64,000 bases of DNA from Trypanosoma brucei (taxonomy: Eukaryota). The stretch's first letter is position 1, and the number at the start of each line of letters is the position of its first letter. Location: assembly GCA_000002445.1 (NCBI GenBank), contig AL929603.2, forward strand, positions 1 through 64,000, in the 5' to 3' direction. Position numbers and translations under genes: made by a program. Shown here piece by piece: positions 12,407 through 40,153 of the stretch. The notes under the pieces are model-generated. The model worked only from the letters and a program-made list of their open reading frames with translations. It made no database searches and was not told the DNA's origin.

Positions 12407-12733
12407 TTAAAGTGGATTACAAATTTCATTGAAAATTTTTTTTGCTGAAGGAAAACATACTGCAACAACAATCTTTACAGCCAATTCATACTCAAGACAA
12501 AGGGCAACACATTCTAGTGTTTCAGCCACAAGCGGTCCGTAACACTGAAAAACATGCTTTTGGCCTGATCCATAATACGATTCAACCAACAAACTCCCTT
12601 CGAAAACTGGCGAGTTGATGTCCTCATCTAGTAAATAAAAAAAGCATCTGAAATATTCTCCTAACAAATCATCAACATTCCTCCCCACAGAAAGACAATA
12701 AGTAAGCCAACCTATTAGCTCTTTCAGTTTCAT
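12407..12733 (-). CDS. Hypothetical 108-aa ORF in the interval where the expression-site promoter and first gene would be expected. It may be spurious.
   Basis: The ORF is on the transcribed (minus) strand ~400 bp downstream (in the minus sense) of the 50-bp array. I recognise no family. It does not resemble the ESAG7/6 N-terminus as I recall it. Confidence 0.15.
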   Translation of the reverse strand: MKLKELIGWLTYCLSVGRNVDDLLGEYFRCFFYLLDEDINSPVFEGSLLVESYYGSGQKHVFQCYGPLVAETLECVALCLEYELAVKIVVAVCFPSAKKIFNEICNPL

Positions 12734-13140
12734 CCGGCAACATAAATCACCCTAAGAACCACATAACAAAAGGAAAAATAACAAATAAAAGTTTCCCACT
12801 AGTTAAACAAAGCATCTTTCACACGCATTATGCACATGAATTTACAATAACTAAAAACAGTGAACATAAAAAAACAAAAAAGTAGTGATAGAAAGCACAA
12901 CACATTTAACAACTTTCACAACTGGGATAAATACCTTATCTAAAGCCAAAACCTTTTAGATATCAAACATATTTTACAAAAAATACATATATTAAAAACA
13001 TTTAAACACAAAAACATGAAACGAACAAAACTTTTCACTACTTAAATTTTAAAAAATAAAACAATAAAATATTATTAAATATAACAATAAAAAATTAATA
13101 ACTAAATAATACACAAAACATATATAAAAATATAATTATT

Positions 13141-16100
13141 ACGCTCTATACTGCCACTTGTGTGAGAATACTTTTAGTACAAGCGAGTACACGCAGTATA
13201 CTGCCACCCCTCTGAGAATACTTTTAGTACAAGCGAGTACACGCAGTATAGTGCTACTTGTGTGAGTATACTTTTAGTACAAGCGAGTACACGCAGTATA
13301 CTGCCACTTGTGTGAGTATACTTTTAGTACAAGCGAGTACACGCAGTATACTGCCACCCCTCTGAGAATACTTTTAGTACAAGCGAGTACACGCAGTATA
13401 GTGCTACTTGTGTGAGTATACTTTTAGTACAAGCGAGTACACGCAGTATACTGCCACTTGTGTGAGTATACTTTTAGTACAAGCGAGTACACGCAGTATA
13501 CTGCCACTTGTGTAAAATAACTTTTAGTACAAGCGAGTACACGCAGTATACCGCCACTTGTGTGAGAATACTTTTTGTACAAGCGAGTACACGCAGTATA
13601 CTGCCACCCCTCTGAGAATACTTTTAGTACAGGGGAGTACACGCAGTATAGTGCCACTTGTGTGAGAATACTTTTTGTACAAGCGAGTACACGCAGTATA
13701 CTGCCACTTGTGTGAGAATACTTTTTGTACAAGCGAGTACACGCAGTATACTGCCAATTGTGAGAGGATACTTTTAGTACCAGCGAGTACACGCAGTATA
13801 CTGCCACTTGTGTGAGATTACTTTTTGTACAGCGAGTACACGCAGTATAGTGCCACTTGTGTGAGAATACTTTTAGTACAAGCGAGTACACGCAGTATAC
13901 TGCCACTTGTGTGAGAATACTTTTTGTACAAGCGAGTACACGCTTTACACTGCTACTTGTGTGAGTATACTTTTAGTACAAGCGAGTACACGCAGTATAC
14001 TGCCACTTGTGTGAGAATACTTTTAGTACAAGCGAGTACACGCAGTATACCGCCACTTGTGTGAGAATACTTTTAGTACAAGCGAGTACACGCAGTATAC
14101 TGCCACTTGTGTGAGAATACTTTTAGTACAAGCGAGTACACGCAGTATAGTGCCACTTGTGTGAGTATACTTTTAGTACAAGCGAGTACACGCAGTATAC
14201 CGCCACTTGTGTGAGAATACTTTTAGTACAAGCGAGTACAAGCAGTATACTGCCACTTGTGTGAGAATACTTTTAGTACAAGCGAGTACACGCAGTATAG
14301 TGCCACTTGTGTGAGTATACTTTTAGTACAAGCGAGTACACGCAGTATAGTGCTACTTGTGTGAGAATACTTTTAGTACAAGCGAGTACACGCAGTATAC
14401 TGCTACTTGTGTGAGAATACTTTTAGTACAAGCGAGTACACGCAGTATACTGCTACTTGTGTGAGAATACTTTTAGTACAAGCGAGTACACGCAGTATAC
14501 TGCTACTTGTGTGAGAATACTTTTAGTACAAGCGAGTACACGCAGTATACTGCTACTTGTGTGAGAATACTTTTAGTACAAGCGAGTACACGCAGTATAG
14601 TGCCACTTGTGTGAGAATACTTTTAGTACAAGCGAGTACACGCAGTATACTGCCACTTGTGTGAGAATACTTTTAGTACAAGCGAGTACACGCAGTATAC
14701 TGCTACTTGTGTGAGAATACTTTTAGTACAAGCGAGTACACGCAGTATACTGCTACTTGTGTGAGAATACTTTTAGTACAAGCGAGTACACGCTGTATAC
14801 TGCCACTTGTGTGAGAATACTTTTAGTAGAGAAGAATACACGCAGTATACTGCCACTTGTGTGAGAATACTTTTAGTACAAGCGAGTACACGCAGTATAC
14901 TGCTACTTGTGTGAGAATACTTTTAGTACAAGCGAGTACACGCAGTATAGTGCCACTTGTGTGAGAATACTTTTAGTACAAGCGAGTACACGCAGCATAC
15001 TGCCACTTGTGTGAGAATACTTTTAGTACAAGCGAGTACACGCAGTATACTGCCACTTGTGTGAGAATACTTTTAGTACAAGCGAGTACACGCAGTATAC
15101 TGCCACGTGTGTGAGAATACTTTTAGTACAAGCGAGTACACGCAGTATAGTGCCACTTGTGTGAGTATACTTTTAGTAGAGAAGAATACACGCAGTAAAC
15201 TGCCACTTGTGTGAGAATACTTTTAGTAGAGAAGAATACACGCAGTATACTGCCACTTGTGTGAGAATACTTTTAGTACAAGCGAGTACACGCAGTATAC
15301 TGCCACTTGTGTGAGAATACTTTTAGTACAAGCGAGTACACGCAGTATACTGCTACTTGTGTGAGAATACTTTTAGTACAAGCGAGTACACGCAGTATAC
15401 TGCCACGTGTGTGAGAATACTTTTAGTACAAGCGAGTACACGCAGTATAGTGCCACTTGTGTGAGAATACTTTTAGTACAAGCGAGTACACGCAGTATAC
15501 TGCCACTTGTGTGAGAATACTTTTAGTACAAGCGAGTACACGCAGTATACTGCCACGTGTGTGAGAATACTTTTAGTACAAGCGAGTACACGCAGTATAC
15601 TGCCACTTGTGTGAGTATACTTTTAGTACAAGCGAGTACACGCAGTATACTGCCACTTGTGTGAGAATACTTTTAGTACAAGCGAGTACACGCAGTATAC
15701 TGCCACTTGTGTGAGAATACTTTTAGTACAAGCGAGTACACGCAGTATAGTGCCACTTGTGTGAGAATACTTTTAGTACAAGCGAGTACACGCTGTATAC
15801 TGCCACTTGTGTGAGAATACTTTTAGTACAAGCGAGTACACGCAGTATACTGCTACTTGTGTGAGAATACTTTTAGTACAAGCGAGTACACGCAGTATAC
15901 TGCTACTTGTGTGAGAATACTTTTAGTACAAGCGAGTACACGCAGTATACTGCTACTTGTGTGAGAATACTTTTAGTACAAGCGAGTACACGCAGTATAC
16001 TGCTACTTGTGTGAGAATACTTTTAGTACAAGCGAGTACACGCAGTATAGTGCCACTTGTGTGAGAATACTTTTAGTACAAGCGAGTACACGCAGTATAC

Positions 16101-19100
16101 TGCCACTTGTGTGAGAATACTTTTAGTACAAGCGAGTACACGCAGTATACTGCTACTTGTGTGAGAATACTTTTAGTACAAGCGAGTACACGCAGTATAC
16201 TGCCACGTGTGTGAGAATACTTTTAGTACAAGCGAGTACACGCAGTATAGTGCCACTTGTGTGAGAATACTTTTAGTACAAGCGAGTACACGCTCTATAC
16301 TGCCACTTGTGTGAGAATACTTTTAGTACAAGCGAGTACACGCTCTATACTGCCACTTGTGTGAGTATACTTTTAGTACAAGCGAGTACACGCAGTATAC
16401 TGCCACTTGTGTGAGAATACTTTTAGTAGAAAAGAATACACGCTCTATACTGCTACTTGTGTGAGAATACTTTTAGTACAAGCGAGTACACGCAGTATAC
16501 TGCCACTTGTGTGAGAATACTTTTAGTAGAGAAGAATACACGCAGTATACTGCCACTTGTGTGAGAATACTTTTAGTACAAGCGAGTACACGCAGTATAC
16601 TGCCACTTGTGTGAGAATACTTTTAGTACAAGCGAGTACACGCTCTACACTGCTACTTGTGTGAGAATACTTTTAGTACAAGCGAGTACACGCAGTATAC
16701 TGCCACTTGTGTGAGAATACTTTTAGTACAAGCGAGTACACGCTCTACACTGCTACTTGTGTGAGAATACTTTTAGTACAAGCGAGTACACGCAGTATAC
16801 TGCCACTTGTGTGAGTATACTTTTAGTACAAGCGAGTACACGCAGTATACTGCCACTTGTGTGAGAATACTTTTAGTACAAGCGAGTACACGCTCTATAC
16901 TGCCACTTGTGTGAGTATACTTTTAGTACAAGCGAGTACACGCAGTATACTGCCACTTGTGTGAGAATACTTTTAGTACAAGCGAGTACACGCAGTATAG
17001 TGCTACTTGTGTGAGAATACTTTTAGTACAAGCGAGTACACGCAGTATAGTGCCACTTGTGAGAGAATACTTTTAGTACAAGCGAGTACACGCAGTATAC
17101 TGCCACTTGTGTGAGAATACTTTTAGTACAAGCGAGTACACGCAGTATAGTGCTACTTGTGTGAGTATACTTTTAGTACAAGCGAGTACACGCAGTATAG
17201 TGCTACTTGTGTGAGAATACTTTTAGTACAAGCGAGTACACGCAGTATACTGCCACTTGTGTGAGAATACTTTTAGTACAAGCGAGTACACGCAGTATAC
17301 TGCCACTTGTGTGAGAATACTTTTAGTACAAGCGAGTACACGCAGTATAGTGCCACTTGTGTGAGAATACTTTTAGTACAAGCGAGTACACGCAGTATAC
17401 TGCCACTTGTGTGAGAATACTTTTAGTACAAGCGAGTACACGCAGTTTACTGCCACTTGTGTGAGAATACTTTTTGTACAAGCGAGTACACGCAGTATAC
17501 TGCCACTTGTGTGAGAATACTTTTAGTACAAGCGAGTACACGCAGTATACTGCTACTTGTGTGAGAATACTTTTAGTACAAGCGAGTACACGCAGTATAC
17601 TGCCACTTGTGTGAGTATACTTTTAGTACAAGCGAGTACACGCAGTATACTGCCACTTGTGAGAGAATACTTTTAGTACAAGCGAGTACACGCAGTATAC
17701 TGCCACTTGTGTGAGAATACTTTTAGTACAAGCGAGTACACGCAGTATACTGCTACTTGTGTGAGAATACTTTTAGTACAAGCGAGTACACGCAGTATAC
17801 TGCCACGTGTGTGAGAATACTTTTAGTACAAGCGAGTACACGCAGTATAGTGCCACTTGTGTGAGAATACTTTTAGTACAAGCGAGTACACGCTGTATAC
17901 TGCTACTTGTGTGAGAATACTTTTAGTACAAGCGAGTACACGCAGTATACTGCCACTTGTGTGAGAATACTTTTAGTACAAGCGAGTACACGCAGTATAC
18001 TGCCACTTGTGTGAGAATACTTTTAGTACAAGCGAGTACACGCAGTATACTGCTACTTGTGTGAGAATACTTTTAGTACAAGCGAGTACACGCAGTATAC
18101 TGCCACTTGTGTGAGAATACTTTTAGTACAAGCGAGTACACGCAGTATACTGCTACTTGTGTGAGAATACTTTTAGTACAAGCGAGTACACGCAGTATAC
18201 TGCTACTTGTGTGAGAATACTTTTAGTACAAGCGAGTACACGCAGTATAGTGCCACTTGTGTGAGAATACTTTTAGTACAAGCGAGTACACGCAGTATAC
18301 TGCCACTTGTGTGAGAATACTTTTAGTACAAGCGAGTACACGCAGTATACTGCTACTTGTGTGAGAATACTTTTAGTACAAGCGAGTACACGCAGTATAC
18401 TGCCACGTGTGTGAGAATACTTTTAGTACAAGCGAGTACACGCAGTATAGTGCCACTTGTGTGAGAATACTTTTAGTACAAGCGAGTACACGCTCTATAC
18501 TGCCACTTGTGTGAGAATACTTTTAGTACAAGCGAGTACACGCAGTATACTGCTACTTGTGTGAGAATACTTTTAGTACAAGCGAGTACACGCAGTATAG
18601 TGCCACTTGTGTGAGAATACTTTTAGTACAAGCGAGTACACGCAGTATAGTGCTACTTGTGTGAGAATACTTTTAGTACAAGCGAGTACACGCAGTATAC
18701 TGCCACTTGTGTGAGAATACTTTTAGTACAAGCGAGTACACGCAGTATACTGCTACTTGTGTGAGAATACTTTTAGTACAAGCGAGTACACGCAGTATAC
18801 TGCCACGTGTGTGAGAATACTTTTAGTACAAGCGAGTACACGCAGTATAGTGCCACTTGTGTGAGAATACTTTTAGTACAAGCGAGTACACGCTCTATAC
18901 TGCTACTTGTGTGAGAATACTTTTAGTACAAGCGAGTACACGCAGTATACTGCTACTTGTGTGAGAATACTTTTAGTACAAGCGAGTACACGCAGTATAG
19001 TGCCACTTGTGTGAGAATACTTTTAGTACAAGCGAGTACACGCAGTATACTGCCACTTGTGTGAGAATACTTTTAGTACAAGCGAGTACACGCAGTATAC

Positions 19101-22100
19101 TGCTACTTGTGTGAGAATACTTTTAGTACAAGCGAGTACACGCAGTATAGTGCCACTTGTGTGAGAATACTTTTAGTACAAGCGAGTACACGCTCTATAC
19201 TGCCACTTGTGTGAGAATACTTTTAGTACAAGCGAGTACACGCAGTATACTGCTACTTGTGTGAGAATACTTTTAGTACAAGCGAGTACACGCAGTATAC
19301 TGCCACTTGTGTGAGAATACTTTTAGTACAAGCGAGTACACGCAGTATAGTGCCACTTGTGTGAGAATACTTTTAGTACAAGCGAGTACACGCTCTATAC
19401 TGCCACTTGTGTGAGAATACTTTTAGTACAAGCGAGTACACGCAGTATACTGCTACTTGTGTGAGAATACTTTTAGTACAAGCGAGTACACGCAGTATAC
19501 TGCTACTTGTGTGAGAATACTTTTAGTACAAGCGAGTACACGCAGTATACTGCTACTTGTGTGAGAATACTTTTAGTACAAGCGAGTACACGCAGTATAC
19601 TGCTACTTGTGTGAGAATACTTTTAGTACAAGCGAGTACACGCAGTATAGTGCCACTTGTGTGAGAATACTTTTAGTACAAGCGAGTACACGCAGTATAC
19701 TGCCACTTGTGTGAGAATACTTTTAGTACAAGCGAGTACACGCAGTATACTGCTACTTGTGTGAGAATACTTTTAGTACAAGCGAGTACACGCAGTATAC
19801 TGCCACGTGTGTGAGAATACTTTTAGTACAAGCGAGTACACGCAGTATAGTGCCACTTGTGTGAGAATACTTTTAGTACAAGCGAGTACACGCTCTATAC
19901 TGCCACTTGTGTGCGTATACTTTTAGTACAAGCGAGTACACGCAGTATACTGCTACTTGTGTGAGATACTTTTAGTACAAGCGAGTACACGCAGTATACT
20001 GCTACTTGTGTGAGAATACTTTTAGTACAAGCGAGTACACGCAGTATAGTGCCACTTGTGTGAGAATACTTTTAGTACAAGCGAGTACACGCAGTATACT
20101 GCCACTTGTGTGAGAATACTTTTAGTACAAGCGAGTACACGCAGTATAGTGCCACTTGTGTGAGTATACTTTTAGTACAAGCGAGTACACGCAGTATACC
20201 GCCACTTGTGTGAGAATACTTTTAGTACAAGCGAGTACACGCAGTATACTGCCACTTGTGTGAGAATACTTTTAGTACAAGCGAGTACACGCAGTATAGT
20301 GCCACTTGTGTGAGAATACTTTTAGTACAAGCGAGTACACGCAGCATACTGCCACTTGTGTGAGAATACTTTTAGTACAAGCGAGTACACGCAGTATACT
20401 GCCACTTGTGTGAGAATACTTTTTGTACAAGCGAGTACACGCAGTATACTGCCACCCCTCTGAGAATACTTTTAGTACAAGCGAGTACACGCAGTATACC
20501 GCCACTTGTGTGAGAATACTTTTTGTACAAGCGAGTACACGCAGTATACTGCCACTTGTGAGAGAATACTTTTAGTACAAGCGAGTACACGCAGTATACT
20601 GCCACTTGTGTGAGAATACTTTTTGTACAAGCGAGTACACGCAGTATACTGCCACTTGTGTGAGAATACTTTTAGTACAAGCGAGTACACGCAGTATACT
20701 GCTACTTGTGTGAGAATACTTTTAGTACAAGCGAGTACACGCAGTATACTGCTACTTGTGTGAGAATACTTTTAGTACAAGCGAGTACACGCTGTATACT
20801 GCCACTTGTGTGAGAATACTTTTAGTACAAGCGAGTACACGCAGTATACTGCCACTTGTGTGAGAATACTTTTAGTACAAGCGAGTACACGCAGTATACT
20901 GCTACTTGTGTGAGAATACTTTTAGTACAAGCGAGTACACGCAGTATAGTGCCACTTGTGTGAGAATACTTTTAGTACAAGCGAGTACACGCAGTATACT
21001 GCCACTTGTGTGAGAATACTTTTAGTACAAGCGAGTACACGCAGTATACTGCCACTTGTGTGAGAATACTTTTAGTACAAGCGAGTACACGCAGTATACT
21101 GCTACTTGTGTGAGAATACTTTTAGTACAAGCGAGTACACGCAGTATACTGCCACTTGTGTGAGAATACTTTTAGTACAAGCGAGTACACGCAGTATACT
21201 GCCACTTGTGTGAGAATACTTTTAGTACAAGCGAGTACACGCAGTATACTGCACGTGTGTGAGAAATACTTTAGTACAAGCGAGTACACGCTCTATACTG
21301 TGACTTGTGTGAGAATACTCTTAGTACAAGCGAGTACACGCAGTATAGTGCCACTTGTGTGAGAATACTTTTAGTACAAGCGAGTACACGCAGTATACTG
21401 CCACTTGTGTGAGAATACTTTTAGTACAAGCGAGTACACGCAGTATACTGCCACTTGTGTGAGAATACTTTTAGTACAAGCGAGTACACGCAGTATACTG
21501 CCACGTGTGTGAGAATACTTTTAGTACAAGCGAGTACACGCAGTATAGTGCCACTTGTGTGAGAATACTTTTAGTACAAGCGAGTACACGCTGTATACTG
21601 CCACTTGTGTGAGAATACTTTTAGTACAAGCGAGTACACGCAGTATACTGCTACTTGTGTGAGAATACTTTTAGTACAAGCGAGTACACGCAGTATACTG
21701 CTACTTGTGTGAGAATACTTTTAGTACAAGCGAGTACACGCAGTATACTGCCACGTGTGTGAGAATACTTTTAGTACAAGCGAGTACACGCAGTATAGTG
21801 CCACTTGTGTGAGAATACTTTTAGTACAAGCGAGTACACGCTGTATACTGCCACTTGTGTGAGAATACTTTTAGTACAAGCGAGTACACGCAGTATAGTG
21901 CCACTTGTGTGAGAATACTTTTAGTACAAGCGAGTACACGCAGTATACTGCCACTTGTGTGAGAATACTTTAGTACAAGCGAGTACACGCAGTTTACTGC
22001 CACTTGTGTGAGAATACTTCTTGTACAAGCGAGTACACGCAGTATACTGCCACTTGTGTGAGAATACTTTTAGTACAAGCGAGTACACGCAGTATACTGC

Positions 22101-25100
22101 TACTTGTGTGAGAATACTTTTAGTACAAGCGAGTACACGCAGTATACTGCCACTTGTGTGAGTATACTTTTAGTACAAGCGAGTACACGCAGTATACTGC
22201 CACTTGTGAGAGAATACTTTTAGTACAAGCGAGTACACGCAGTATACTGCCACTTGTGTGAGAATACTTTTAGTACAGGGGAGTACACGCAGTATACTGC
22301 CACTTGTGTGAGAATACTTTTAGTACAAGCGAGTACACGCAGTATACTGCCACTTGTGTGAGAATACTTTTAGTACAAGCGAGTACACGCAGTATACTGC
22401 CACTTGTGTGAGAATACTTTTAGTACAAGCGAGTACACGCAGTATACTGCCACGTGTGTGAGAATACTTTTAGTACAAGCGAGTACACGCAGTATACTGC
22501 CACTTGTGTGAGTATACTTTTAGTAGAGAAGAATACACGCAGTATACTGCCACTTGTGTGAGAATACTTTTAGTAGAGAGCGAGTACACGCAGATCTGCC
22601 CTTGTGTGAGAATACTTTTAGGTACAAGGCGAGGTACACGCAGTATACATGCCACTTGTGTGAGAATACTTTTAGGTACAAGGCGAGGTACCACGCAGGT
22701 ATACTGCCACGTGTGTGAGAATACTTTTAGGTACAAGGCGAGGTACACGCAGGTATAGGTGCCACTTGTGTGAGTATACTTTTAGTAGAGAAGAGATACA
22801 CCAGGTAACTGCCACTTGTGTGAGAATACTTTTAGTACAGGCGAGTACACGCTTTATACTACCACCCCTCTGAGAATACTTTTAGGACAAGCGAGTACAC
22901 GCAGTATACTGCCACTTGTGTTAGAATACTTTTAGTAGAGAAGAATACACGCAGTATACTGCCACTTGTGTGAGAATACTTTTAGTAGAGAAGAATACAC
23001 GCCAGTTTACTGCCACTTGTGTGAGAATACTTTTAGTACAAGCGAGTACACGCAGTATACTGCCACTTGTGTGAGAATACTTTTAGTACAAGCGAGTACA
23101 CGCAGTATACTGCTACTTGTGTGAGAATACTTTTAGTACAAGCGAGTACACGCAGTATAGTGCCACTTGTGTGAGAATACTTTTAGTACAAGCGAGTACA
23201 CGCAGTATACTGCCACTTGTGTGAGAATACTTTTAGTACAAGCGAGTACACGCAGTATACTGCCACTTGTGTGAGAATACTTTTAGTACAAGCGAGTACA
23301 CGCAGTATACTGCCACTTGTGTGAGAATACTTTTAGTACAAGCGAGTACACGCAGTATAGTGCTACTTGTGTGAGAATACTTTTAGTACAAGCGAGTACA
23401 CGCAGTATACTGCCACTTGTGTGAGAATACTTTTAGTACAAGCGAGTACACGCAGTATACTGCCACTTGTGTGAGAATACTTTTAGTACAAGCGAGTACA
23501 CGCAGTATAGTGCCACTTGTGTGAGAATACTTTTAGTACAAGCGAGTACACGCAGTATACTGCCACTTGTGTGAGAATACTTTTAGTACAAGCGAGTACA
23601 CGCAGTATACTGCCACTTGTGTGAGAATACTTTTAGTACAAGCGAGTACACGCAGTATACTGCCACTTGTGTGAGAATACTTTTAGTACAAGCGAGTACA
23701 CGCAGTATACTGCTACTTGTGTGAGAATACTTTTAGTACAAGCGAGTACACGCAGTATACTGCCACTTGTGTGAGAATACTTTTAGTACAAGCGAGTACA
23801 CGCAGTATAGTGCCACTTGTGTGAGTATACTTTTAGTACAAGCGAGTACACGCTGTATACTGCCACTTGTGTGAGAATACTTTTAGTACAAGCGAGTACA
23901 CGCAGTATACTGCCACTTGTGTGAGAATACTTTTAGTACAAGCGAGTACACGCAGTATAGTGCCACTTGTGTGAGAATACTTTTAGTACAAGCGAGTACA
24001 CGCAGTATACTGCCACGTGTGTGAGAATACTTTTAGTACAAGCGAGTACACGCAGTATAGTGCCACTTGTGTGAGAATACTTTTAGTACAAGCGAGTACA
24101 CGCAGTATACTGCCACTTGTGTGAGAATACTTTTAGTACAAGCGAGTACACGCAGTATAGTGCCACTTGTGTGAGAATACTTTTAGTACAAGCGAGTACA
24201 CGCTCTATACTGCCACTTGTGTGAGAATACTTTTAGTACAAGCGAGTACACGCAGTATACTGCTACTTGTGTGAGAATACTTTTAGTACAAGCGAGTACA
24301 CGCAGTATACTGCTACTTGTGTGAGAATACTTTTAGTACAAGCGAGTACACGCAGTATACTGCTACTTGTGTGAGAATACTTTTAGTACAAGCGAGTACA
24401 CGCAGTATACTGCTACTTGTGTGAGAATACTTTTAGTACAAGCGAGTACACGCAGTATAGTGCCACTTGTGTGAGAATACTTTTAGTACAAGCGAGTACA
24501 CGCAGTATACTGCCACTTGTGTGAGAATACTTTTAGTACAAGCGAGTACACGCAGTATACTGCTACTTGTGTGAGAATACTTTTAGTACAAGCGAGTACA
24601 CGCAGTATACTGCCACGTGTGTGAGAATACTTTTAGTACAAGCGAGTACACGCAGTATAGTGCCACTTGTGTGAGAATACTTTTAGTACAAGCGAGTACA
24701 CGCTCTATACTGCCACTTGTGTGAGAATACTTTTAGTACAAGCGAGTACACGCAGTATACTGCTACTTGTGTGAGAATACTTTTAGTACAAGCGAGTACA
24801 CGCAGTATACTGCTACTTGTGTGAGAATACTTTTAGTACAAGCGAGTACACGCAGTATAGTGCCACTTGTGTGAGAATACTTTTAGTACAAGCGAGTACA
24901 CGCAGTATACTGCCACTTGTGTGAGAATACTTTTAGTACAAGCGAGTACACGCAGTATACTGCTACTTGTGTGAGAATACTTTTAGTACAAGCGAGTACA
25001 CGCAGTATAGTGCCACTTGTGTGAGAATACTTTTAGTACAAGCGAGTACACGCTCTATACTGCCACTTGTGTGAGAATACTTTTAGTACAAGCGAGTACA

Positions 25101-28100: not shown

Positions 28101-31100
28101 CGCAGTATAGTGCCACTTGTGTGAGAATACTTTTAGTACAAGCGAGTACACGCAGTATACTGCCACTTGTGTGAGAATACTTTTAGTACAAGCGAGTACA
28201 CGCAGTATAGTGCCACTTGTGTGAGAATACTTTTAGTACAAGCGAGTACACGCAGTATACTGCCACTTGTGTGAGAATACTTTTAGTACAAGCGAGTACA
28301 CGCAGTATACTGCCACGTGTGTGAGAATACTTTTAGTACAAGCGAGTACACGCAGTATAGTGCCACTTGTGTGAGAATACTTTTAGTACAAGCGAGTACA
28401 CGTTTTATACTGCCACTTGTGTGAGAATACTTTTAGTACAAGCGAGTGCACGCAGTATACTGCTACTTGTGTGAGAATACTTTTAGTACAAGCGAGTACA
28501 CGCAGTATACTGCCACGTGTGTGAGAATACTTTTAGTACAAGCGAGTACACGCAGTATAGTGCCACTTGTGTGAGAATACTTTTAGTACAAGCGAGTACA
28601 CGCAGTATACTGCCACTTGTGTGAGAATACTTTTAGTACAAGCGAGTACACGCAGTATACTGCTACTTGTGTGAGAATACTTTTAGTACAAGCGAGTACA
28701 CGCAGTATACTGCTACTTGTGTGAGAATACTTTTAGTACAAGCGAGTACACGCAGTATACTGCCACGTGTGTGAGAATACTTTTAGTACAAGCGAGTACA
28801 CGCAGTATAGTGCCACTTGTGTGAGAATACTTTTAGTACAAGCGAGTACACGCTCTATACTGCCACTTGTGTGAGAATACTTTTAGTACAAGCGAGTACA
28901 CGCAGTATACTGCTACTTGTGTGAGAATACTTTTAGTACAAGCGAGTACACGCAGTATACTGCTACTTGTGTGAGAATACTTTTAGTACAAGCGAGTACA
29001 CGCAGTATAGTGCCACTTGTGTGAGAATACTTTTAGTACAAGCGAGTACACGCAGTATACTGCCACTTGTGTGAGAATACTTTTAGTACAAGCGAGTACA
29101 CGCAGTATAGTGCCACTTGTGTGAGAATACTTTTAGTACAAGCGAGTACACGCTCTATACTGCCACTTGTGTGAGAATACTTTTAGTACAAGCGAGTACA
29201 CGCAGTATACTGCTACTTGTGTGAGAATACTTTTAGTACAAGCGAGTACACGCAGTATAGTGCCACTTGTGTGAGAATACTTTTAGTACAAGCGAGTACA
29301 CGCAGTATACTGCTACTTGTGTGAGAATACTTTTAGTCACAAGCGAGTACACGCAGTATACTGCTACTTGTGTGAGAATACTTTTAGTACAAGCGAGTAC
29401 ACGCAGTATAGTGCCACTTGTGTGAGAATACTTTTAGTACAAGCGAGTACACGCAGTATACTGCCACTTGTGTGAGAATACTTTTAGTACAAGCGAGTAC
29501 ACGCAGTATACTGCTACTTGTGTGAGAATACTTTTAGTACAAGCGAGTACACGCAGTATACTGCCACGTGTGTGAGAATACTTTTAGTACAAGCGAGTAC
29601 ACGCAGTATATTGCCACTTGTGTGAGAATACTTTTAGTACAAGCGAGTACACGCTCTATACTGCCACTTGTGTGAGAATACTTTTAGTACAAGCGAGTAC
29701 ACGCAGTATACTGCTACTTGTGTGAGAATACTTTTAGTACAAGCGAGTACACGCAGTATACTGCTACTTGTGTGAGAATACTTTTAGTACAAGCGAGTAC
29801 ACGCAGTATAGTGCCACTTGTGTGAGAATACTTTTAGTACAAGCGAGTACACGCTCTATACTGCCACTTGTGTGAGAATACTTTTAGTACAAGCGAGTAC
29901 ACGCAGTATACTGCTACTTGTGTGAGAATACTTTTAGTACAAGCGAGTACACGCAGTATACTGCTACTTGTGTGAGAATACTTTTAGTACAAGCGAGTAC
30001 ACGCAGTATAGTGCCACTTGTGTGAGAATACTTTTAGTACAAGCGAGTACACGCAGTATACTGCCACTTGTGTGAGAATACTTTTAGTACAAGCGAGTAC
30101 ACGCAGTATACTGCTACTTGTGTGAGAATACTTTTAGTACAAGCGAGTACACGCAGTATACTGCCACGTGTGTGAGAATACTTTTAGTACAAGCGAGTAC
30201 ACGCAGTATAGTGCCACTTGTGTGAGAATACTTTTAGTACAAGCGAGTACACGCTCTATACTGCCACTTGTGTGAGAATACTTTTAGTACAAGCGAGTAC
30301 ACGCAGTATACTGCTACTTGTGTGAGAATACTTTTAGTACAAGCGAGTACACGCAGTATACTGCTACTTGTGTGAGAATACTTTTAGTACAAGCGAGTAC
30401 ACGCAGTATACTGCTACTTGTGTGAGAATACTTTTAGTACAAGCGAGTACACGCAGTATACTGCTACTTGTGTGAGAATACTTTTAGTACAAGCGAGTAC
30501 ACGCAGTATACTGCTACTTGTGTGAGAATACTTTTAGTACAAGCGAGTACACGCAGTATACTGCTACTTGTGTGAGAATACTTTTAGTACAAGCGAGTAC
30601 ACGCAGTATACTGCTACTTGTGTGAGAATACTTTTAGTACAAGCGAGTACACGCAGTATACTGCCACTTGTGTGAGAATACTTTTAGTACAAGCGAGTAC
30701 ACGCAGTATACTGCTACTTGTGTGAGAATACTTTTAGTACAAGCGAGTACACGCAGTATACTGCCACGTGTGTGAGAATACTTTTAGTACAAGCGAGTAC
30801 ACGCAGTATAGTGCCACTTGTGTGAGAATACTTTTAGTACAAGCGAGTACACGCAGTATACTGCCACTTGTGTGAGAATACTTTTAGTACAGGGGAGTAC
30901 ACGCAGTATACTGCCACTTGTGTGAGAATACTTTTAGTACAAGCGAGTACACGCAGTATACTGCCACTTGTGAGAGAATACTTTTAGTACAAGCGAGTAC
31001 ACGCAGTATACTGCCACTTGTGTGAAAATACTTTTAGTACAAGCGAGTACACGCAGTATACTGCTACTTGTGTGAGAATACTTTTAGTACAAGCGAGTAC

Positions 31101-34100
31101 ACGCAGTATAGTGCCACTTGTGTGAGAATACTTTTAGTACAAGCGAGTACACGCAGTATACTGCCACTTGTGTGAGAATACTTTTAGTACAAGCGAGTAC
31201 ACGCAGTATACTGCTACTTGTGTGAGAATACTTTTAGTACAAGCGAGTACACGCAGTATACTGCCACGTGTGTGAGAATACTTTTAGTACAAGCGAGTAC
31301 ACGCAGTATAGTGCCACTTGTGTGAGAATACTTTTAGTACAAGCGAGTACACGCAGTATACTGCCACTTGTGTGAGAATACTTTTAGTACAAGCGAGTAC
31401 ACGCAGTATACTGCTACTTGTGTGAGAATACTTTTAGTACAAGCGAGTACACGCAGTATACTGCCACTTGTGTGAGAATACTTTTAGTACAAGCGAGTAC
31501 ACGCAGTATACTGCCACTTGTGTGAGAATACTTTTAGTACAAGCGAGTACACGCAGTATACTGCCACTTGTGTGAGAATACTTTTAGTACAAGCGAGTAC
31601 ACGCAGTATAGTGCCACTTGTGTGAGAATACTTTTAGTACAAGCGAGTACACGCTCTATACTGCCACTTGTGTGAGAATACTTTTAGTACAAGCGAGTAC
31701 ACGCAGTATACTGCTACTTGTGTGAGAATACTTTTAGTACAAGCGAGTACACGCAGTATACTGCTACTTGTGTGAGAATACTTTTAGTACAAGCGAGTAC
31801 ACGCAGTATACTGCCACTTGTGTGAGAATACTTTTAGTACAAGCGAGTACACGCTCTATACTGCCACTTGTGTGAGAATACTTTTAGTACAAGCGAGTAC
31901 ACGCTCTATACTGCTACTTGTGTGAGAATACTTTTAGTACAAGCGAGTACACGCAGTATACTGCTACTTGTGTGAGAATACTTTTAGTACAAGCGAGTAC
32001 ACGCAGTATACTGCTACTTGTGTGAGAATACTTTTAGTACAAGCGAGTACACGCAGTATAGTGCCACTTGTGTGAGAATACTTTTAGTACAAGCGAGTAC
32101 ACGCAGTATACTGCCACTTGTGTGAGAATACTTTTAGTACAAGCGAGTACACGCAGTATACTGCTACTTGTGTGAGAATACTTTTAGTACAAGCGAGTAC
32201 ACGCAGTATACTGCCACGTGTGTGAGAATACTTTTAGTACAAGCGAGTACACGCAGTATAGTGCCACTTGTGTGAGAATACTTTTAGTACAAGCGAGTAC
32301 ACGCTCTATACTGCCACTTGTGTGAGAATACTTTTAGTACAAGCGAGTACACGCAGTATACTGCTACTTGTGTGAGAATACTTTTAGTACAAGCGAGTAC
32401 ACGCAGTATACTGCTACTTGTGTGAGAATACTTTTAGTACAAGCGAGTACACGCAGTATAGTGCCACTTGTGTGAGAATACTTTTAGTACAAGCGAGTAC
32501 ACGCAGTATACTGCCACTTGTGTGAGAATACTTTTAGTACAAGCGAGTACACGCTCTATACTGCCACTTGTGTGAGAATACTTTTAGTACAAGCGAGTAC
32601 ACGCAGTATACTGCTACTTGTGTGAGAATACTTTTAGTACAAGCGAGTACACGCAGTATACTGCTACTTGTGTGAGAATACTTTTAGTACAAGCGAGTAC
32701 ACGCAGTATACTGCTACTTGTGTGAGAATACTTTTAGTACAAGCGAGTACACGCAGTATACTGCTACTTGTGTGAGAATACTTTTAGTACAAGCGAGTAC
32801 ACGCAGTATAGTGCCACTTGTGTGAGAATACTTTTAGTACAAGCGAGTACACGCAGTATACTGCCACTTGTGTGAGAATACTTTTAGTACAAGCGAGTAC
32901 ACGCAGTATACTGCTACTTGTGTGAGAATACTTTTAGTACAAGCGAGTACACGCAGTATACTGCCACGTGTGTGAGAATACTTTTAGTACAAGCGAGTAC
33001 ACGCAGTATAGTGCCACTTGTGTGAGAATACTTTTAGTACAAGCGAGTACACGCTCTATACTGCCACTTGTGTGAGAATACTTTTAGTACAAGCGAGTAC
33101 ACGCAGTATACTGCTACTTGTGTGAGAATACATTTAGTACAAGCGAGTACACGCAGTATACTGCTACTTGTGTGAGAATACTTTTAGTACAAGCGAGTAC
33201 ACGCAGTATACTGCCACTTGTGTGAGAATACTTTTAGTACAAGCGAGTACACGCAGTATAGTGCCACTTGTGTGAGAATACTTTTAGTACAAGCGAGTAC
33301 ACGCTCTATACTGCCACTTGTGTGAGAATACTTTTAGTACAAGCGAGTACACGCAGTATACTGCTACTTGTGTGAGAATACTTTTAGTACAAGCGAGTAC
33401 ACGCAGTATACTGCTACTTGTGTGAGAATACTTTTAGTACAAGCGAGTACACGCAGTATACTGCTACTTGTGTGAGAATACTTTTAGTACAAGCGAGTAC
33501 ACACAGTATACTGCCACTTGTGTGAGAATACTTTTAGTACAGGCGAGTACACGCAGTATAGTGCCACTTGTGTGAGAATACTTTTAGTACAAGCGAGTAC
33601 ACGCAGTATACTGCCACTTGTGTGAGAATACTTTTAGTACAAGCGAGTACACGCAGTATACTGCTACTTGTGTGAGAATACTTTTAGTACAAGCGAGTAC
33701 ACACAGTATACTGCCACTACTGTGAGAATACTTTTAGTACAGGCGAGTACACACAGTATACTGCCACTACTGTGAGAATACTTATAGTACAAGCGAGTAC
33801 ACGCAGTATAGTGCCACTTGTGTGAGAATACTTTTAGTACAAGCGAGTACACGCAGTATACTGCCACTTGTGTGAGAATACTTTTAGTACAAGCGAGTAC
33901 ACGCAGTATACTGCCACTTGTGTGAGAATACTTTTAGTACAGGCGAGTACACGCAGTATACTGCCACTTGTGTGAGAATACTTTTAGTACAAGCGAGTAC
34001 ACGCAGTATAGTGCCACTTGTGTGAGAATACTTTTAGTACAAGCGAGTACACGCTCTATACTGCCACTTGTGTGAGAATACTTTTAGTACAAGCGAGTAC

Positions 34101-37100
34101 ACGCAGTATACTGCTACTTGTGTGAGAATACTTTTAGTACAAGCGAGTACACGCAGTATACTGCCACTTGTGTGAGAATACTTTTAGTACAAGCGAGTAC
34201 ACGCAGTATACTGCTACTTGTGTGAGAATACTTTTAGTACAAGCGAGTACACGCAGTATAGTGCCACTTGTGTGAGAATACTTTTAGTACAAGCGAGTAC
34301 ACGCAGTATACTGCCACTTGTGTGAGAATACTTTTAGTACAAGCGAGTACACGCAGTATACTGCTACTTGTGTGAGAATACTTTTAGTACAAGCGAGTAC
34401 ACGCAGTATACTGCCACGTGTGTGAGAATACTTTTAGTACAAGCGAGTACACGCAGTATAGTGCCACTTGTGTGAGAATACTTTTAGTACAAGCGAGTAC
34501 ACGCAGTATACTGCCACTTGTGTGAGAATACTTTTAGTACAAGCGAGTACACGCAGTATACTGCCACTTGTGTGAGAATACTTTTAGTACAAGCGAGTAC
34601 ACGCAGTATACTGCCACTTGTGTGAGAATACTTTTAGTACAAGCGAGTACACGCAGTATACTGCCACTTGTGTGAGAATACTTTTAGTACAAGCGAGTAC
34701 ACGCAGTATACTGCCACTTGTGTGAGAATACTTTTAGTACAAGCGAGTACACGCAGTATACTGCCACTTGTGTGAGAATACTTTTAGTACAAGCGAGTAC
34801 ACGCAGTATACTGCTACTTGTGTGAGAATACTTTTAGTACAGGCGAGTACACGCAGTATACTGCCACCCCTGTAAGAATACTTTTAGTACAGGTTAGTAC
34901 ACACAGTATACTGCCACCCCTGTAAGAATACTTTTAGTACAGGCGAGTACACACAGTATACTGCCACCCCTGTAAGAATACTTTTAGTACAGGCGAGTAC
35001 ACACAGTATACTGCCACCCCTGTAAGAATACTTTTAGTACAGGCGAGTACACGCTGTATACTGCCACCCCTGTAAGAATACTTTTAGTACAGGCGAGTAC
35101 ACACAGTATACTGCCACCTCTGTAAGAATACTTTTAGTACAGGCGAGTACACACAGTATACTGCCACCCCTGTAAGAATACTTTTAGTACAGGCGAGTAC
35201 ACACAGTATACTGCCACCCCTGTAAGAATACTTTTAGTACAGGCGAGTACACACAGTATACTGCCACCCCTGTAAGAATACTTTTAGTACAAGCGAGTAC
35301 ACGCAGTATACTGCTACCCCTGTAAGAATACTTTTAGTACAGGCGAGTACACACAATATACTGCTACCCCTGTAAGAATACTTTTAGTACAGGCGAGTAC
35401 ACGCTCTATACTGCTACTCCTGTAAGAATACTTTTAGTACAGGCGAGTACACACAATATACTGCTACCCCTGTAAGAATACTTTTAGTACAAGCGAGTAC
35501 ACACAGTATACTGCCACCCCTGTAAGAATACTTTTAGTACAGGCGAGTACACACAGTATACTGCCACCCCTGTAAGAATACTTTTAGTACAGGCGAGTAC
35601 ACGCAGTATAGTGCCACTTGTGTGAGAATACTTTTAGTACAAGCGAGTACACGCAGTATACTGCCACCCCTGTAAGAATACTTTTAGTACAGGCGAGTAC
35701 ACACAGTATACTGCCACCCATGTACGAATACTTTTAGTACAGGCGAGTACACACAGTATACTGCCACCCCTGTGAGAATACTTTTCGTACAGGCGAGTAC
35801 ACACAGTATACTGCCACCCCTGTAAGAATACTTTTAGTATAAGCGAGTACACGCAGTATACTGCCACCCCTGTAAGAATACTTTTAGTATAAGCGAGTAC
35901 ACGCAGTATACTGCCACCCCTGTGAGAATACTTTTAGTACAGGCGAGTACACGCAGTATACTGCCACCCCTGTAAGAATACTTTTAGTACAGGCGAGTAC
36001 ACGCAGTATACTGCCACCCCTGTAAGAATACTTTTAGTACAGGCGAGTACACGCAGTATACTGCCACCTCTGTGAGAATACTTTTAGTACAGGCGAGTAC
36101 ACGCAGTATACTGCCACCCCTGTAAGAATACTTTTAGTACAGGCGAGTACACGCAGTATACTGCCACCCCTGTAAGAATACTTTTAGTACAAGCGAGTAC
36201 ACGCAGTATACTGCCACCCCTGTAAGAATACTTTTAGTACAGGCGAGTACACGCAGTATACTGCCACCCCTGTAAGAATACTTTTAGTACAGGCGAGTAC
36301 ACGCAGTATACTGCCCCCCCTGTGAGAATACTTTTAGTATAAGCGAGTACACGCAGTATACTGCTACCCCTGTGAGAATACGTTTAGTACAGGCGAGTAC
36401 ACGCAGTATACTGCTACCCCTGTGAGAATACTTTTAGTACAAGCGAGTACACGCAGTATACTGCTACCCCTGTGAGAATACTTTTAGTACAAGCGAGTAC
36501 ACGCAGTATACTGCCACCCCTGTAAGAATACTTTTAGTACAAGCGAGTACACACAGTATACTGCCACCCCTGTGAGAATACTTTTAGTACAAGCGAGTAC
36601 ACACAGTATACTGCTACTTGTGTGAGAATACTTTTAGTACAAGCGAGTACACACAGTATACTGCCACCCCTGTGAGAATACTTTTAGTACAGGCGAGTAC
36701 ACACAGTATACTGCCACCCCTGTGAGAATACTTTTAGTACAGGCGAGTACACGCAGTATACTGCCACCCCTGTAAGAATACTTTTAGTACAAGCGAGTAC
36801 ACGCAGTATACTGCCACTTGTGTGAGAATACTTTTAGTACAGGGGAGTACACGCTCTATACTGCCACCCCTGTGAGAATACTTTTAGTACAGGCTAGTAC
36901 ACACAGTATACTGCCACCCCTGTGAGAATACTTTTAGTACAGGGGAGTACACACAGTATACTGCCACCCCTGTGAGAATACTTTTAGCACAGGGGAGTAC
37001 ACACAGTATACTGCCACCCCTGTAAGAATACTTTTAGTACAGGCGAGTACACACAGTATACTGCCACCCCTGTGAGAATACTTTTAGTACAGGCGAGTAC

Positions 37101-40100
37101 ACGCTCTATACTACCACCCCTGTAAGAATACTTTTAGTACAGGCGTGTACACACAGTATACTGCCACCCCTGTAAGAATACTTTTAGTACAGGCGAGTAC
37201 ACACAGTATACTGCTACTTGTGTGAGAATACTTTTAGTACAAGCGAGTACACGCAGTATACTGCTACTTGTGTGAGAATACTTTTAGTACAAGCGAGTAC
37301 ACGCAGTATACTGCTACTTGTGTGAGAATACTTTTAGTACAAGCGAGTACACGCAGTATAGTGCCACTTGTGTGAGAATACTTTTAGTACAAGCGAGTAC
37401 ACGCAGTATACTACCACCCCTGTGAGAATACTTTTCGTACAGGCGAGTACACGCAGTATACTACCACCCCTGTAAGAATACTTTTAGTATAGGCGAGTAC
37501 ACGCAGTATACTACCACCCCTGTAAGAATACTTTTAGTATAGGCGAGTACACGCAGTATACTACCACCCCTATGCAATTACTTTTCGTACAGGCGAGTAC
37601 ACGCAGTATACTGCCACCCCTATGCAATTACTTTTCGTACAGGCGAGTACACGCAGTATACTGCCACCCCTGTAAGAATACGTTTCGTACAGGCGAGTAC
37701 ACACAGTATACTGCCACCCCTGTAAGAATACGTTTCGTACAGGCGAGTGCACACAGTATACTGCCACCCCTATGCAATTAGTTTTCGTACAGGCGAGTAC
37801 ACGCAGTATACTGCCACCCCTGTAAGAATACGTTTCGTACAGGCGAGTACACACAGTATACTGCCACCCCTATGCAATTAGTTTTCGTACAGGCGAGTAC
37901 ACGCAGTATACTGCCACCCCTGTAAGAATACTTTTAGTACAGGCGAGTACACGCAGTATACTGCCACCCCTGTGAGAATACTTTTAGTACAGGCGAGTAC
38001 ACACAGTATACTGCCACCCCTGTAAGAATACTTTTAGTACAGGGGAGTACACACAGTATACTGCCACCCCTGTAAGAATACTTTTAGTACAGGGGAGTAC
38101 ACGCAGTATACTGCCACCCCTGTGAGAATACTTTTAGTACAGGGGAGTACACACAGTATACTGCCACCCCTGTAAGAATACTTTTAGTACAGGGGAGTAC
38201 ACACAGTATACTGCCACCCCTGTAAGAATACTTTTAGTACAGGGGAGTACACACAGTATACTGCCACCCCTGTGAGAATACTTTTAGTACAGGCTAGTAC
38301 ACGCTCTATACTGCCACCCCTGTAAGAATACTTTTAGTACAGGGGAGTACACACAGTATACTGCCACCCCTGTGAGAATACTTTTAGTACAGGCGTGTAC
38401 ACACAGTATACTGCCACCCCTGTGAGAATACTTTTAGTACAGGCGTGTACACACAGTATACTGCCACCCCTGTAAGAATACTTTTAGTACAGGCGTGTAC
38501 ACACAGTATACTGCCACCCCTGTGAGAATACTTTTAGTACAGGCGTGTACACACAGTATACTGCCACCCCTGTAAGAATACTTTTAGTACAGGCGAGTAC
38601 ACACAGTATACTGCCACCCCTGTAAGAATACTTTTAGTACAGGCGAGTACACACAGTATACTGCCACCCCTGTGAGAATACTTTTAGTACAGGCGAGTAC
38701 ACACAGTATACTGCCACCCCTGTAAGAATACTTTTAGTACAGGCGAGTACACACAGTATACTGCCACCCCTGTAAGAATACTTTTAGTACAAGCGAGTAC
38801 ACACAGTATACTGCCACCCCTGTGAGAATACTTTTAGTACAAGCGAGTACACACAGTATACTGCCACCCCTGTGAGAATACTTTTAGTACAAGCGAGTAC
38901 ACACAGTATACTGCCACCCCTGTAAGAATACTTTTAGTACAGGCGAGTACACACAGTATACTGCCACCCCTGTGAGAATACTTTTAGTACAGGCGAGTAC
39001 ACACAGTATACTGTCACCCCTGTAAGAATACTTTTAGTACAGGCGAGTACACGCTCTAGACTGCTACCCCTGTAAGAATACTTTTAGTACAAGCGAGTAC
39101 ACACAATATACTGCCACCCCTGTGAGAATACTTTTAGTACAGGCGAGTACACACAATATACTGCTACCCCTGTAAGAATACTTTTAGTACAGGCGAGTAC
39201 ACACAATATACTGCTACCCCTGTAAGAATACTTTTAGTACAGGCGAGTACACACAATATACTGCCACCCCTGTAAGAATACTTTTAGTACAGGCGAGTAC
39301 ACACAGTATACTGCCACCCCTGTGAGAACACGTTTAGTACAGGCGAGTACACACAGTATACTGCCACCCCTGTAAGAATACTTTTAGTACAGGCGAGTAC
39401 ACACAGTATACTGCCACCCCTGTGAGAATACTTTTAGTACAGGCGAGTACACACAATATACTGCTACCCCTGTAAGAATACTTTTAGTACAGGCGAGTAC
39501 ACACAGTATACTGCCACCCCTGTGAGAATACTTTTAGTACAGGCTAGTACACACAGTATACTGCCACCCCTGTAAGAATACTTTTAGTACAGGCGAGTAC
39601 ACACAATATACTGCCACCCCTGTAAGAATACTTTTAGTACAGGCGAGTACACACAATATACTGCCACCCCTGTAAGAATACTTTTAGTACAAGCGAGTAC
39701 ACGCAGTATACTGTCCCCCCTGTGAGAATACTTTTAGTACAGGCGAGTACACACAGTATACTGCCACCCCAGTAAGAACACGTTTAGTACAAGCGAGTAC
39801 ACACAGTATACTGCCACCCCTGTAAGAATACTTTTAGTACAGGCGAGTACACACAGTATACTGCCACCCCTGTAAGAATACTTTTAGTACAGGCGAGTAC
39901 ACACAATATACTGCTACCCCTGTAAGAATACTTTTAGTACAGGCGAGTACACACAGTATACTGCCACCCCTGTAAGAATACGTTTCGTACAGGCGAGTGC
40001 ACGCAGTATACTACCACCCCTATGCAATTACTTTTTGTACAGGCGAGTGCACGCAGTATACTACCACCCCTATGCAATTACTTTTAGTACAGGCGAGTAC

Positions 40101-40153
40101 ACGCAGTATACTACCACCCCTATGCAATTACGTTTCGTACAGGCGAGTACACG
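13141..40153. repeat. 50-bp repeat array (~27 kb, ~540 units), the characteristic upstream boundary of T. brucei VSG expression sites
   Basis: Unit ctgccacttgtgtgagaatacttttagtacaagcgagtacacgcagtata (50 bp) is repeated head-to-tail with point variants. There is a sharp onset at 13141 after an AT-rich tract and a sharp end at ~40153 (acacggggggaacc). Stop-free frames generate the many artefactual 60-160-aa ORFs in the track. Confidence 0.93.
34850..40153. repeat. Divergent distal sub-families of the 50-bp repeat: type II ctgccacccctgtaagaatacttttagtacaggcgagtacacacagtata and type III ctaccacccctatgcaattac(g/t)ttt(c/a)gtacaggcgagt(a/g)cacgcagtata
   Basis: Read directly. From ~34850 the cttgtgtgag core is replaced by cccctgtaag/cccctgtgag, and aagcgag by aggcgag/aggggag. 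Short re-intrusions of the type I unit occur at ~36600 and 37200-37380. Type III blocks are at ~37550-37900 and 39960-40140. Confidence 0.85.

Follow-up and report, generated by a model that had tools for sequence, protein, structure and literature searches.

Unit-by-unit anatomy of the 50-bp repeat array at the left end of Trypanosoma brucei chromosome 1, with a 12-bp palindrome under no detectable extra constraint

The 50-bp repeat arrays that lie upstream of bloodstream VSG expression-site promoters in Trypanosoma brucei were reportedly first described by Zomerdijk et al. in 1990, and Sheader et al. are said to have proposed a boundary role for them in 2003. Here we describe one such array unit by unit. 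It lies in the first 64,000 nucleotides of contig AL929603.2 (GenBank assembly GCA_000002445.1, forward strand), a stretch that we refer to in its entirety as the window and that is the left telomere of chromosome 1 of T. brucei TREU927. The feature is the long-known 50-bp repeat array upstream of a VSG expression site, and its sequence was published about two decades ago. The unit-level analysis finds an array zoned into sub-families and carrying dispersed duplicated blocks of units, and a 12-bp palindrome that is part of the consensus unit but shows no detectable extra constraint within the array. From the telomere inwards, the window contains the following features.

1 to 104, minus strand: telomere repeats, read as (TAACCC)n
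381 to 1961, minus strand: telomeric VSG gene, the same as XP_001218755.1 of T. brucei TREU927, its domains being VSG_B and VSG C-terminal
about 3464 to 6325, strand not given: 70-bp repeat region
5097 to 5196: assembly gap of 100 N, inside the 70-bp repeats upstream of the VSG
9411 to 9815: weak LRR (ESAG8-like) fragments
11158 to 11865, plus strand: Tb927.1.30, an annotated hypothetical gene
12407 to 12733, minus strand: Tb927.1.40, an annotated hypothetical gene, 400 bp from the array
13140 to 40153, plus strand: the whole 50-bp repeat array, 540 units with 112 distinct unit sequences
42040 to 43613, minus strand: frame-broken pseudogene of a second-largest RNA polymerase subunit (Rpb2-like), 2-3.5 kb distal to the array
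44937 to 46994, minus strand: RHS4 gene (XP_846380.1), with no intact gene between it and the array

The locus therefore reads telomere, VSG, 70-bp repeats, about 6.8 kb of gene debris, 50-bp array, Rpb2-like pseudogene and three RHS genes. The VSG, Tb927.1.30, Tb927.1.40 and two RHS4 proteins are exact matches to TREU927 chromosome 1 records, RHS4 homologues were found by protein search, and the domain content of the flanking genes agrees with their VSG and RHS identities. An earlier reading made from the sequence only, which had taken the element for a T. brucei VSG expression-site 50-bp array between the site and the RHS genes, had thus identified it correctly. Four pieces of the pseudogene (42040-42267, 42601-43077, 42977-43198 and 43347-43613) match the Pfam domains RNA_pol_Rpb2_6 or Rpb2_4. 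Tb927.1.40 has no homologue beyond itself in a search of 5.8 billion proteins. Like other T. brucei expression-site 50-bp arrays, this one has a 50-bp unit repeated head to tail over tens of kilobases and sits between subtelomeric RHS genes on one side and a telomeric VSG with its 70-bp repeats on the other. Unlike typical expression sites, the site downstream of it is truncated, and no intact ESAG was found in the approximately 6.8 kb (6326-13139) that separates the 70-bp repeats from the array. Hall et al., in their 2003 paper on chromosome I, are said to have regarded the sequence here as a putative bloodstream expression site in truncated, degenerate form.

Tandem Repeats Finder calls a single array at 13147-40153 with a period of 50, 539.9 copies and 95% matches, and consensus-guided segmentation, with which we cut the units for comparison one by one, extends this slightly to 13140-40153 (27.0 kb) and gives 540 head-to-tail units. 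Nearly all are exactly 50 bp long (529 units), the others measuring 49 bp (five), 51 bp (three) and 53, 54 and 55 bp (one each). Every unit is on the plus strand, and there are zero copies elsewhere within the window. The consensus unit, in the register used throughout, is CACGCAGTATACTGCCACTTGTGTGAGAATACTTTTAGTACAAGCGAGTA; it is itself the commonest unit, with 122 copies, followed by units with a change of C to T at column 16 (110 copies), C to G at column 12 (68), T to G at column 19 (24), and AG to TC at columns 6-7 (20). The best-kept block of the unit in both parts of the array is GAATACTTTTAGTAC, at columns 26-42, where 0.90-0.94 of units keep intact the 12-mer windows that start at columns 26-31.

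We note that GAATACTTTTAGTAC holds an interrupted dyad, TACT-TTT-AGTA, and that the 4-mer AGTA/TACT, as read from the consensus, is found at five positions in each unit (columns 6, 10, 30, 37 and 47). An open reading frame of 160 amino acids also runs through the repeats on the minus strand (13424-13906), where a change of A to T at column 37 abolishes the one stop otherwise met in every 150 bp; as a protein query it finds no homologue, and it is a by-product of the repeat.

The units were typed by their bases at columns 19-21 and 23-30, which assigns 433 units to type I, 97 to type II and seven to type III and leaves three unclear. Arranged along the array, these types and the local anomalies discussed below occupy the following segments.

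13140 to 34849, plus strand: zone 1, 434 units, almost all of type I (TTG at columns 19-21)
34850 to 40153, plus strand: zone 2, 106 units, type II and type III
13190 to 13489, plus strand: expression-site-side edge, a 3-unit (150-bp) motif of unit types Q-R-I occurring twice
19255 to 19913, plus strand: longest exact internal duplicate, 659 bp, containing the block ACEBBBBCABDC, with its second copy from 24065
22520 to 23010, plus strand: divergent island in the array, units of 49-55 bp with recurrent G insertions
37200 to 37399, plus strand: largest type I re-intrusion in zone 2, four units
37550 to 37899, plus strand: first type III cluster (CCCCTATGCAATTAC or its variant in G), interleaved with type II
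40000 to 40149, plus strand: last three array units, all type III, with GCAGTATACTAC, in which only the inner 8 bp of the palindrome remains

Type II units carry CCC at columns 19-21, A at column 25 and G at column 43, and in 59% of cases A at column 4; the string CCCCTGTAAG occurs 58 times, from 34867 onward. Type III is represented by five copies of CCCCTATGCAATTAC and two further units that end in G. The switch from type I to type II is sharp, at 34850; ahead of it, at approximately 33500-33750, stand three units that resemble type II and have A at column 4. The zonation that had been claimed from the sequence, about 21 kb of type I followed by types II and III from 34.85 kb, is borne out by the unit typing, as are the short re-intrusions of type I towards the RHS side, which amount to seven units, with singles at 35600, 36600 and 36800 in addition to the group of four listed above. 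Divergence follows the same axis: an interior unit shows on average 0.45-1.8 differences from the type I consensus; the corresponding mean is 2.45 for the first 20 units, and in zone 2 it climbs from 5.45 to 7.40 as the RHS side is approached. The proximal edge has a character of its own, in that three of the first ten units (13190, 13340 and 13590) have CCC at columns 19-21, and the Q units carry CCCCTCTGAG, a CCC-type state resembling the distal zone. The GC skew, for its part, is about +0.08 where type I prevails and turns negative, between -0.06 and -0.16, across types II and III (34001-40000), a flip to which the replacement of TTG by CCC at columns 19-21 contributes.

The order of units within the array is not random, contrary to what would be expected had variants been scattered along it by chance. 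When unit types are coded as letters and the resulting strings compared with shuffled unit orders, the 8-unit string BBCABDCE occurs six times as against none in 2000 shuffles, CABDC occurs nine times where 0.03 are expected, and the longest shared run of identical successive units is 12, compared with at most 8 in 30 shuffles. Related blocks of 8-12 units are found at eight or more places, with starts at 15839, 18139, 24199, 24349, 28699, 29900, 31950 and 32550. In zone 2 there is an excess of similarity between neighbours only (z = -10.6, -7.2 and -5.3 at lags 1-3). The units are also mosaic, all four allele combinations being present at every pair among columns 4, 16, 25 and 43.

We consider it likely that the anatomy of this known 50-bp array, at a truncated, degenerate expression site, reflects concerted evolution, and that the palindrome is under no detectable extra constraint. 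An interior made uniform, edges that have diverged, variants clustered locally, duplicated blocks and mosaic units together form the pattern that concerted evolution is expected to leave. Unequal sister-chromatid or ectopic exchange, together with short-tract gene conversion, would homogenise the array, and one unit variant, type I, would have spread through the interior along with multi-unit blocks of its derivatives. The edges would take less part in such exchange and would keep older, more diverged units, namely types II and III on the RHS flank and, at the expression-site edge, units of the CCC type. CCC-type units stand at both edges and TTG-type units in the interior; the simplest inference is therefore that the CCC state is the older and that type I spread through the interior. 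What the analysis shows directly is the anatomy, its statistics and the identity of the locus; the mechanism of exchange and this direction of change, from CCC-type to TTG-type, are what we infer from the anatomy.

Satellite arrays, for example human alpha-satellite with its monomeric flanks, have a homogenised core and diverged edges, for which concerted evolution by unequal crossing-over is the model. The array described here resembles such satellites in its near-uniform interior, progressively diverged edges, local variant clusters, duplicated blocks and mosaic units. Unlike alpha-satellite, it has no higher-order repeat of fixed period and is subtelomeric rather than centromeric, and in contrast to satellites its divergence is strongly one-sided, extending over about 5.3 kb at the RHS edge and about 1 kb at the expression-site edge.

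Some observations weigh against this explanation, and they bear on the assembly and on the palindrome. The sequence is a Sanger-era assembly in which the length of the array and the order of its interior may be imperfect. The longest exact repeat, at 659 bp, is about the length of one Sanger read, and every 700-mer is unique; since an assembler limited by read length would yield just this pattern, the positions of blocks and the length of the array may be partly artefactual. The nearby 100-N gap in the 70-bp repeats indicates that this chromosome end was not fully finished. The island at 22520-23010 may be a product of the same difficulty, as recurrent G insertions are typical of poor base calls. 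On the other side, variants among the units are reproducible, not random, and three successive units of the island share identical G insertions (AGGTACAAGGCGAGGTAC). The 20-unit bin that contains the island has a mean of 3.8 differences per unit; TAGTAGAGAAGAATACACG is a variant local to the island, which also includes a CCC-type unit at 22848. It represents either low-quality reads joined together or a relic segment, such as an old array edge.

A further observation concerns six rare unit types (Q, Y, M, N, S and Z), which are confined to 13140-15000 and 20100-20650 and differ in order between the two. That these types are common only to the two segments could reflect a segmental duplication that carried part of the expression-site edge into the interior, or misassembly. 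Taken together, an interior pattern (the block positions, the island at 22.5-23.0 kb and the length of the array) that is partly an artefact of assembly is possible, although on balance we think it unlikely. Such an artefact would touch the order and length of the array only, not its repertoire of units or the statistics of the palindrome, and it would leave the distal zonation and the proximal edge motif in place; these are the most trustworthy parts of the array, because they are anchored in unique flanks.

The remaining observations that weigh against this explanation concern the palindrome, which first occurs as follows.

13193 to 13204, no strand assigned: first 12-bp perfect palindrome, GCAGTATACTGC, at unit columns 4-15

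The sequence-only reading had found this perfect palindrome in the dominant unit and had considered it conserved and a plausible binding site for a dimeric protein, in keeping with the proposed boundary or insulator role; on this view a sequence-specific protein would recognise it every 50 bp and its binding would give the array that activity. Its presence is clear: GCAGTATACTGC belongs to the consensus, and its 317 copies, the last starting at 38103, occur only within the array, so that 59% of units have perfect dyad symmetry. When the consensus, taken as circular, is shuffled 20,000 times with its composition kept, a perfect palindrome of at least 12 bp arises in only 1.6% of the shuffles, so that its presence in the consensus is mildly unusual, though noticed after the fact, and could reflect function. 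At its centre, TATA is 99% invariant. In the final 5 kb of the array the inner 8 bp are kept in 0.65-0.90 of units, and the inner 8-10 bp as a whole persist in 65-90% of distal units, except that the 10-bp form stands at 0.50 in the last bin. Proteins are enriched on 50-bp repeats as well, though none is known to be sequence-specific. Conservation within the array is in any case a weak test of selection, because amplification makes column frequencies follow the drift of whichever variants happen to spread.

Against such a binding site stands the way in which the palindrome varies. The 12-mer is missing from 41% of the 540 units; as an intact window (0.59 of units) it ranks 37th of 50 among the 12-mer windows of the unit, and the best-conserved block, at columns 26-42, sits away from it. 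Mean column conservation in the palindrome is equal to or slightly lower than that in the rest of the unit, at 0.956 versus 0.958 overall, 0.964 versus 0.981 in zone 1 and 0.940 versus 0.952 in zone 2, so that the palindrome is no better conserved than its surroundings, the very outcome that the sequence-only reading had named as refuting its idea, and the claim of conservation fails. Four of its columns (4, 6, 7 and 12) are among the most variable, with majority frequencies of 0.875, 0.907, 0.907 and 0.839; only the TATA centre and the block at columns 26-42 stand out in conservation. Variants that break the palindrome have themselves been amplified, with G at column 12 in 84 units, A at column 4 in 66 and TC at columns 6-7 in 36. 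Compensation between the arms, seen as a symmetric double change, is present in only two of 529 units. Nor are rare variants, which were taken as closer to independent mutations than are amplified ones, depleted in the palindrome: singletons number 0.33 per column inside and 0.39 outside, and variants seen at most twice 0.83 and 0.61 (p = 0.42).

That a frequent variant breaks the palindrome had been seen correctly, GCAGTATAGTGC having 83 copies, and ACACAGTATACTGCC has 53, between 33501 and 39951. The distal type II units had been said to keep only the inner 10 bp, which is so for the 59% of distal units that have the 10-bp form (A at column 4) and not for the 28 distal units in which all 12 bp survive. 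Across zone 1 the palindrome is complete in 0.60-0.82 of units, a fraction that then drops to 0.45, 0.23 and 0.00 over the last 5 kb, reaching 0% in the last 1 kb. Single-stranded folding of the DNA of three units, as a gauge of hairpin or cruciform potential, gives modest z-scores of -2.2 to -3.9, mostly from pairing between the palindromes of neighbouring units, and these say little about function, the 6-bp arms being short. Whatever the function of the array is, an intact 12-bp palindrome in every unit is not required for it, and a dimeric protein reading the full site every 50 bp seems to us doubtful. It is likewise improbable, though worth stating, that a putative sequence-specific protein reads the unit through the inner core of the palindrome (CAGTATACTG) or through the interrupted dyad in GAATACTTTTAGTAC, such that the zonation would form a graded or two-state binding landscape that sets the upstream border of the regulated expression-site domain; were this so, the sites would be full near the expression site and weakened near the RHS genes.

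For this assembly, organisation as a true higher-order repeat with a period of 10-12 units (500-600 bp), as in centromeric satellites, is very unlikely and was rejected, for although blocks of 8-12 units recur and the G variant at column 19 is spaced by 12 units four times and by 10 and 13 units once each, the blocks are dispersed at irregular distances (15, 28, 41, 44, 56 and up to 335 units), unit distance in zone 1 shows no significant excess of similarity at lags 10, 11 and 12 (z = -1.7, -0.1 and -1.6), the sole periodic signal being a weak one at lag 4 (200 bp, z = -5.0), and spacings of 10-13 units are not significantly enriched for any of the four variants named in the sequence-only reading (p = 0.055, 0.085, 0.97 and 0.19). 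The 4-unit period is seen also in the G variant at column 12, for which it is the modal spacing (z = 3.8 at lag 4). The suggestion of higher-order repeats thus survives in the sense that multi-unit blocks of 400-600 bp recur beyond chance, and the proposed recurrence of variants at 500-600-bp spacings does not; the variant order is non-random and consists of dispersed duplicated blocks and local spread rather than a regular 500-600-bp repeat.

Concerted evolution describes how the array may have come to look as it does, and the roles proposed for such arrays come from other work. T. brucei also has 70-bp repeats upstream of VSGs and 177-bp repeats on small chromosomes. In the published passages that bear on them, these two families are like the 50-bp repeats in being tandem and in having base J and, to varying degrees, NLP, H2A.Z and RAP1; the 50-bp repeats have no known role in recombination comparable to that of the 70-bp repeats. 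Those passages place base J on the 50-bp repeats even beside the active expression site, and describe H2A.Z/H2B.V and NLP as enriched on them and RAP1 as slightly enriched. A 2024 Nanopore preprint, whose assembly of Lister 427 has 10 full arrays, cites the boundary role as a proposal, calls the 50-bp repeats 'highly conserved' and regards the meaning of that conservation, and the function, as unclear; there, RNA-DNA hybrids accumulate on the other repeats examined but not on the 50-bp repeats, which are not origins of replication either. The published candidates for a role of the array are accordingly those of a boundary of the regulated expression-site domain, or of a platform for base J, H2A.Z/H2B.V and NLP, both as proposed. 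A T(N12)A geometry has been proposed for the maintenance of base J (Genest et al. 2015), and a unit built for this purpose was considered and rejected, the consensus having 4-5 such pairs where 4.3 are expected.

Comparisons with other sequences were few. A 2026 preprint could detect none of the repeats anywhere in its T. congolense assembly. No 50-bp repeat was present in two RHS loci of T. b. equiperdum, and the 50-bp unit had no match in a scan of the JGI metagenome collection. A sequence-word search of papers did not find a published sequence of the 50-bp unit, and the published passages on 50-bp repeats that were located contain no mention of the palindrome, the sub-families or the block structure.

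The result modestly refines the description of an element already known, in a chromosome sequence already published, and is not a new kind of feature. A selectively conserved palindrome, which was the most interesting claim made for the array, is not supported, and the sub-family zones and multi-unit blocks are real, but look like ordinary turnover of a tandem repeat. The 50-bp repeats nonetheless mark every known bloodstream VSG expression site, and the unit-level map of this array names natural palindrome-broken variants (C12G, G4A and AG6-7TC) together with the best-conserved block of the unit. These natural variants would serve as probes in binding tests and in variant-aware chromatin immunoprecipitation, and the array, in the arrangement of its units, records the history of its own turnover.

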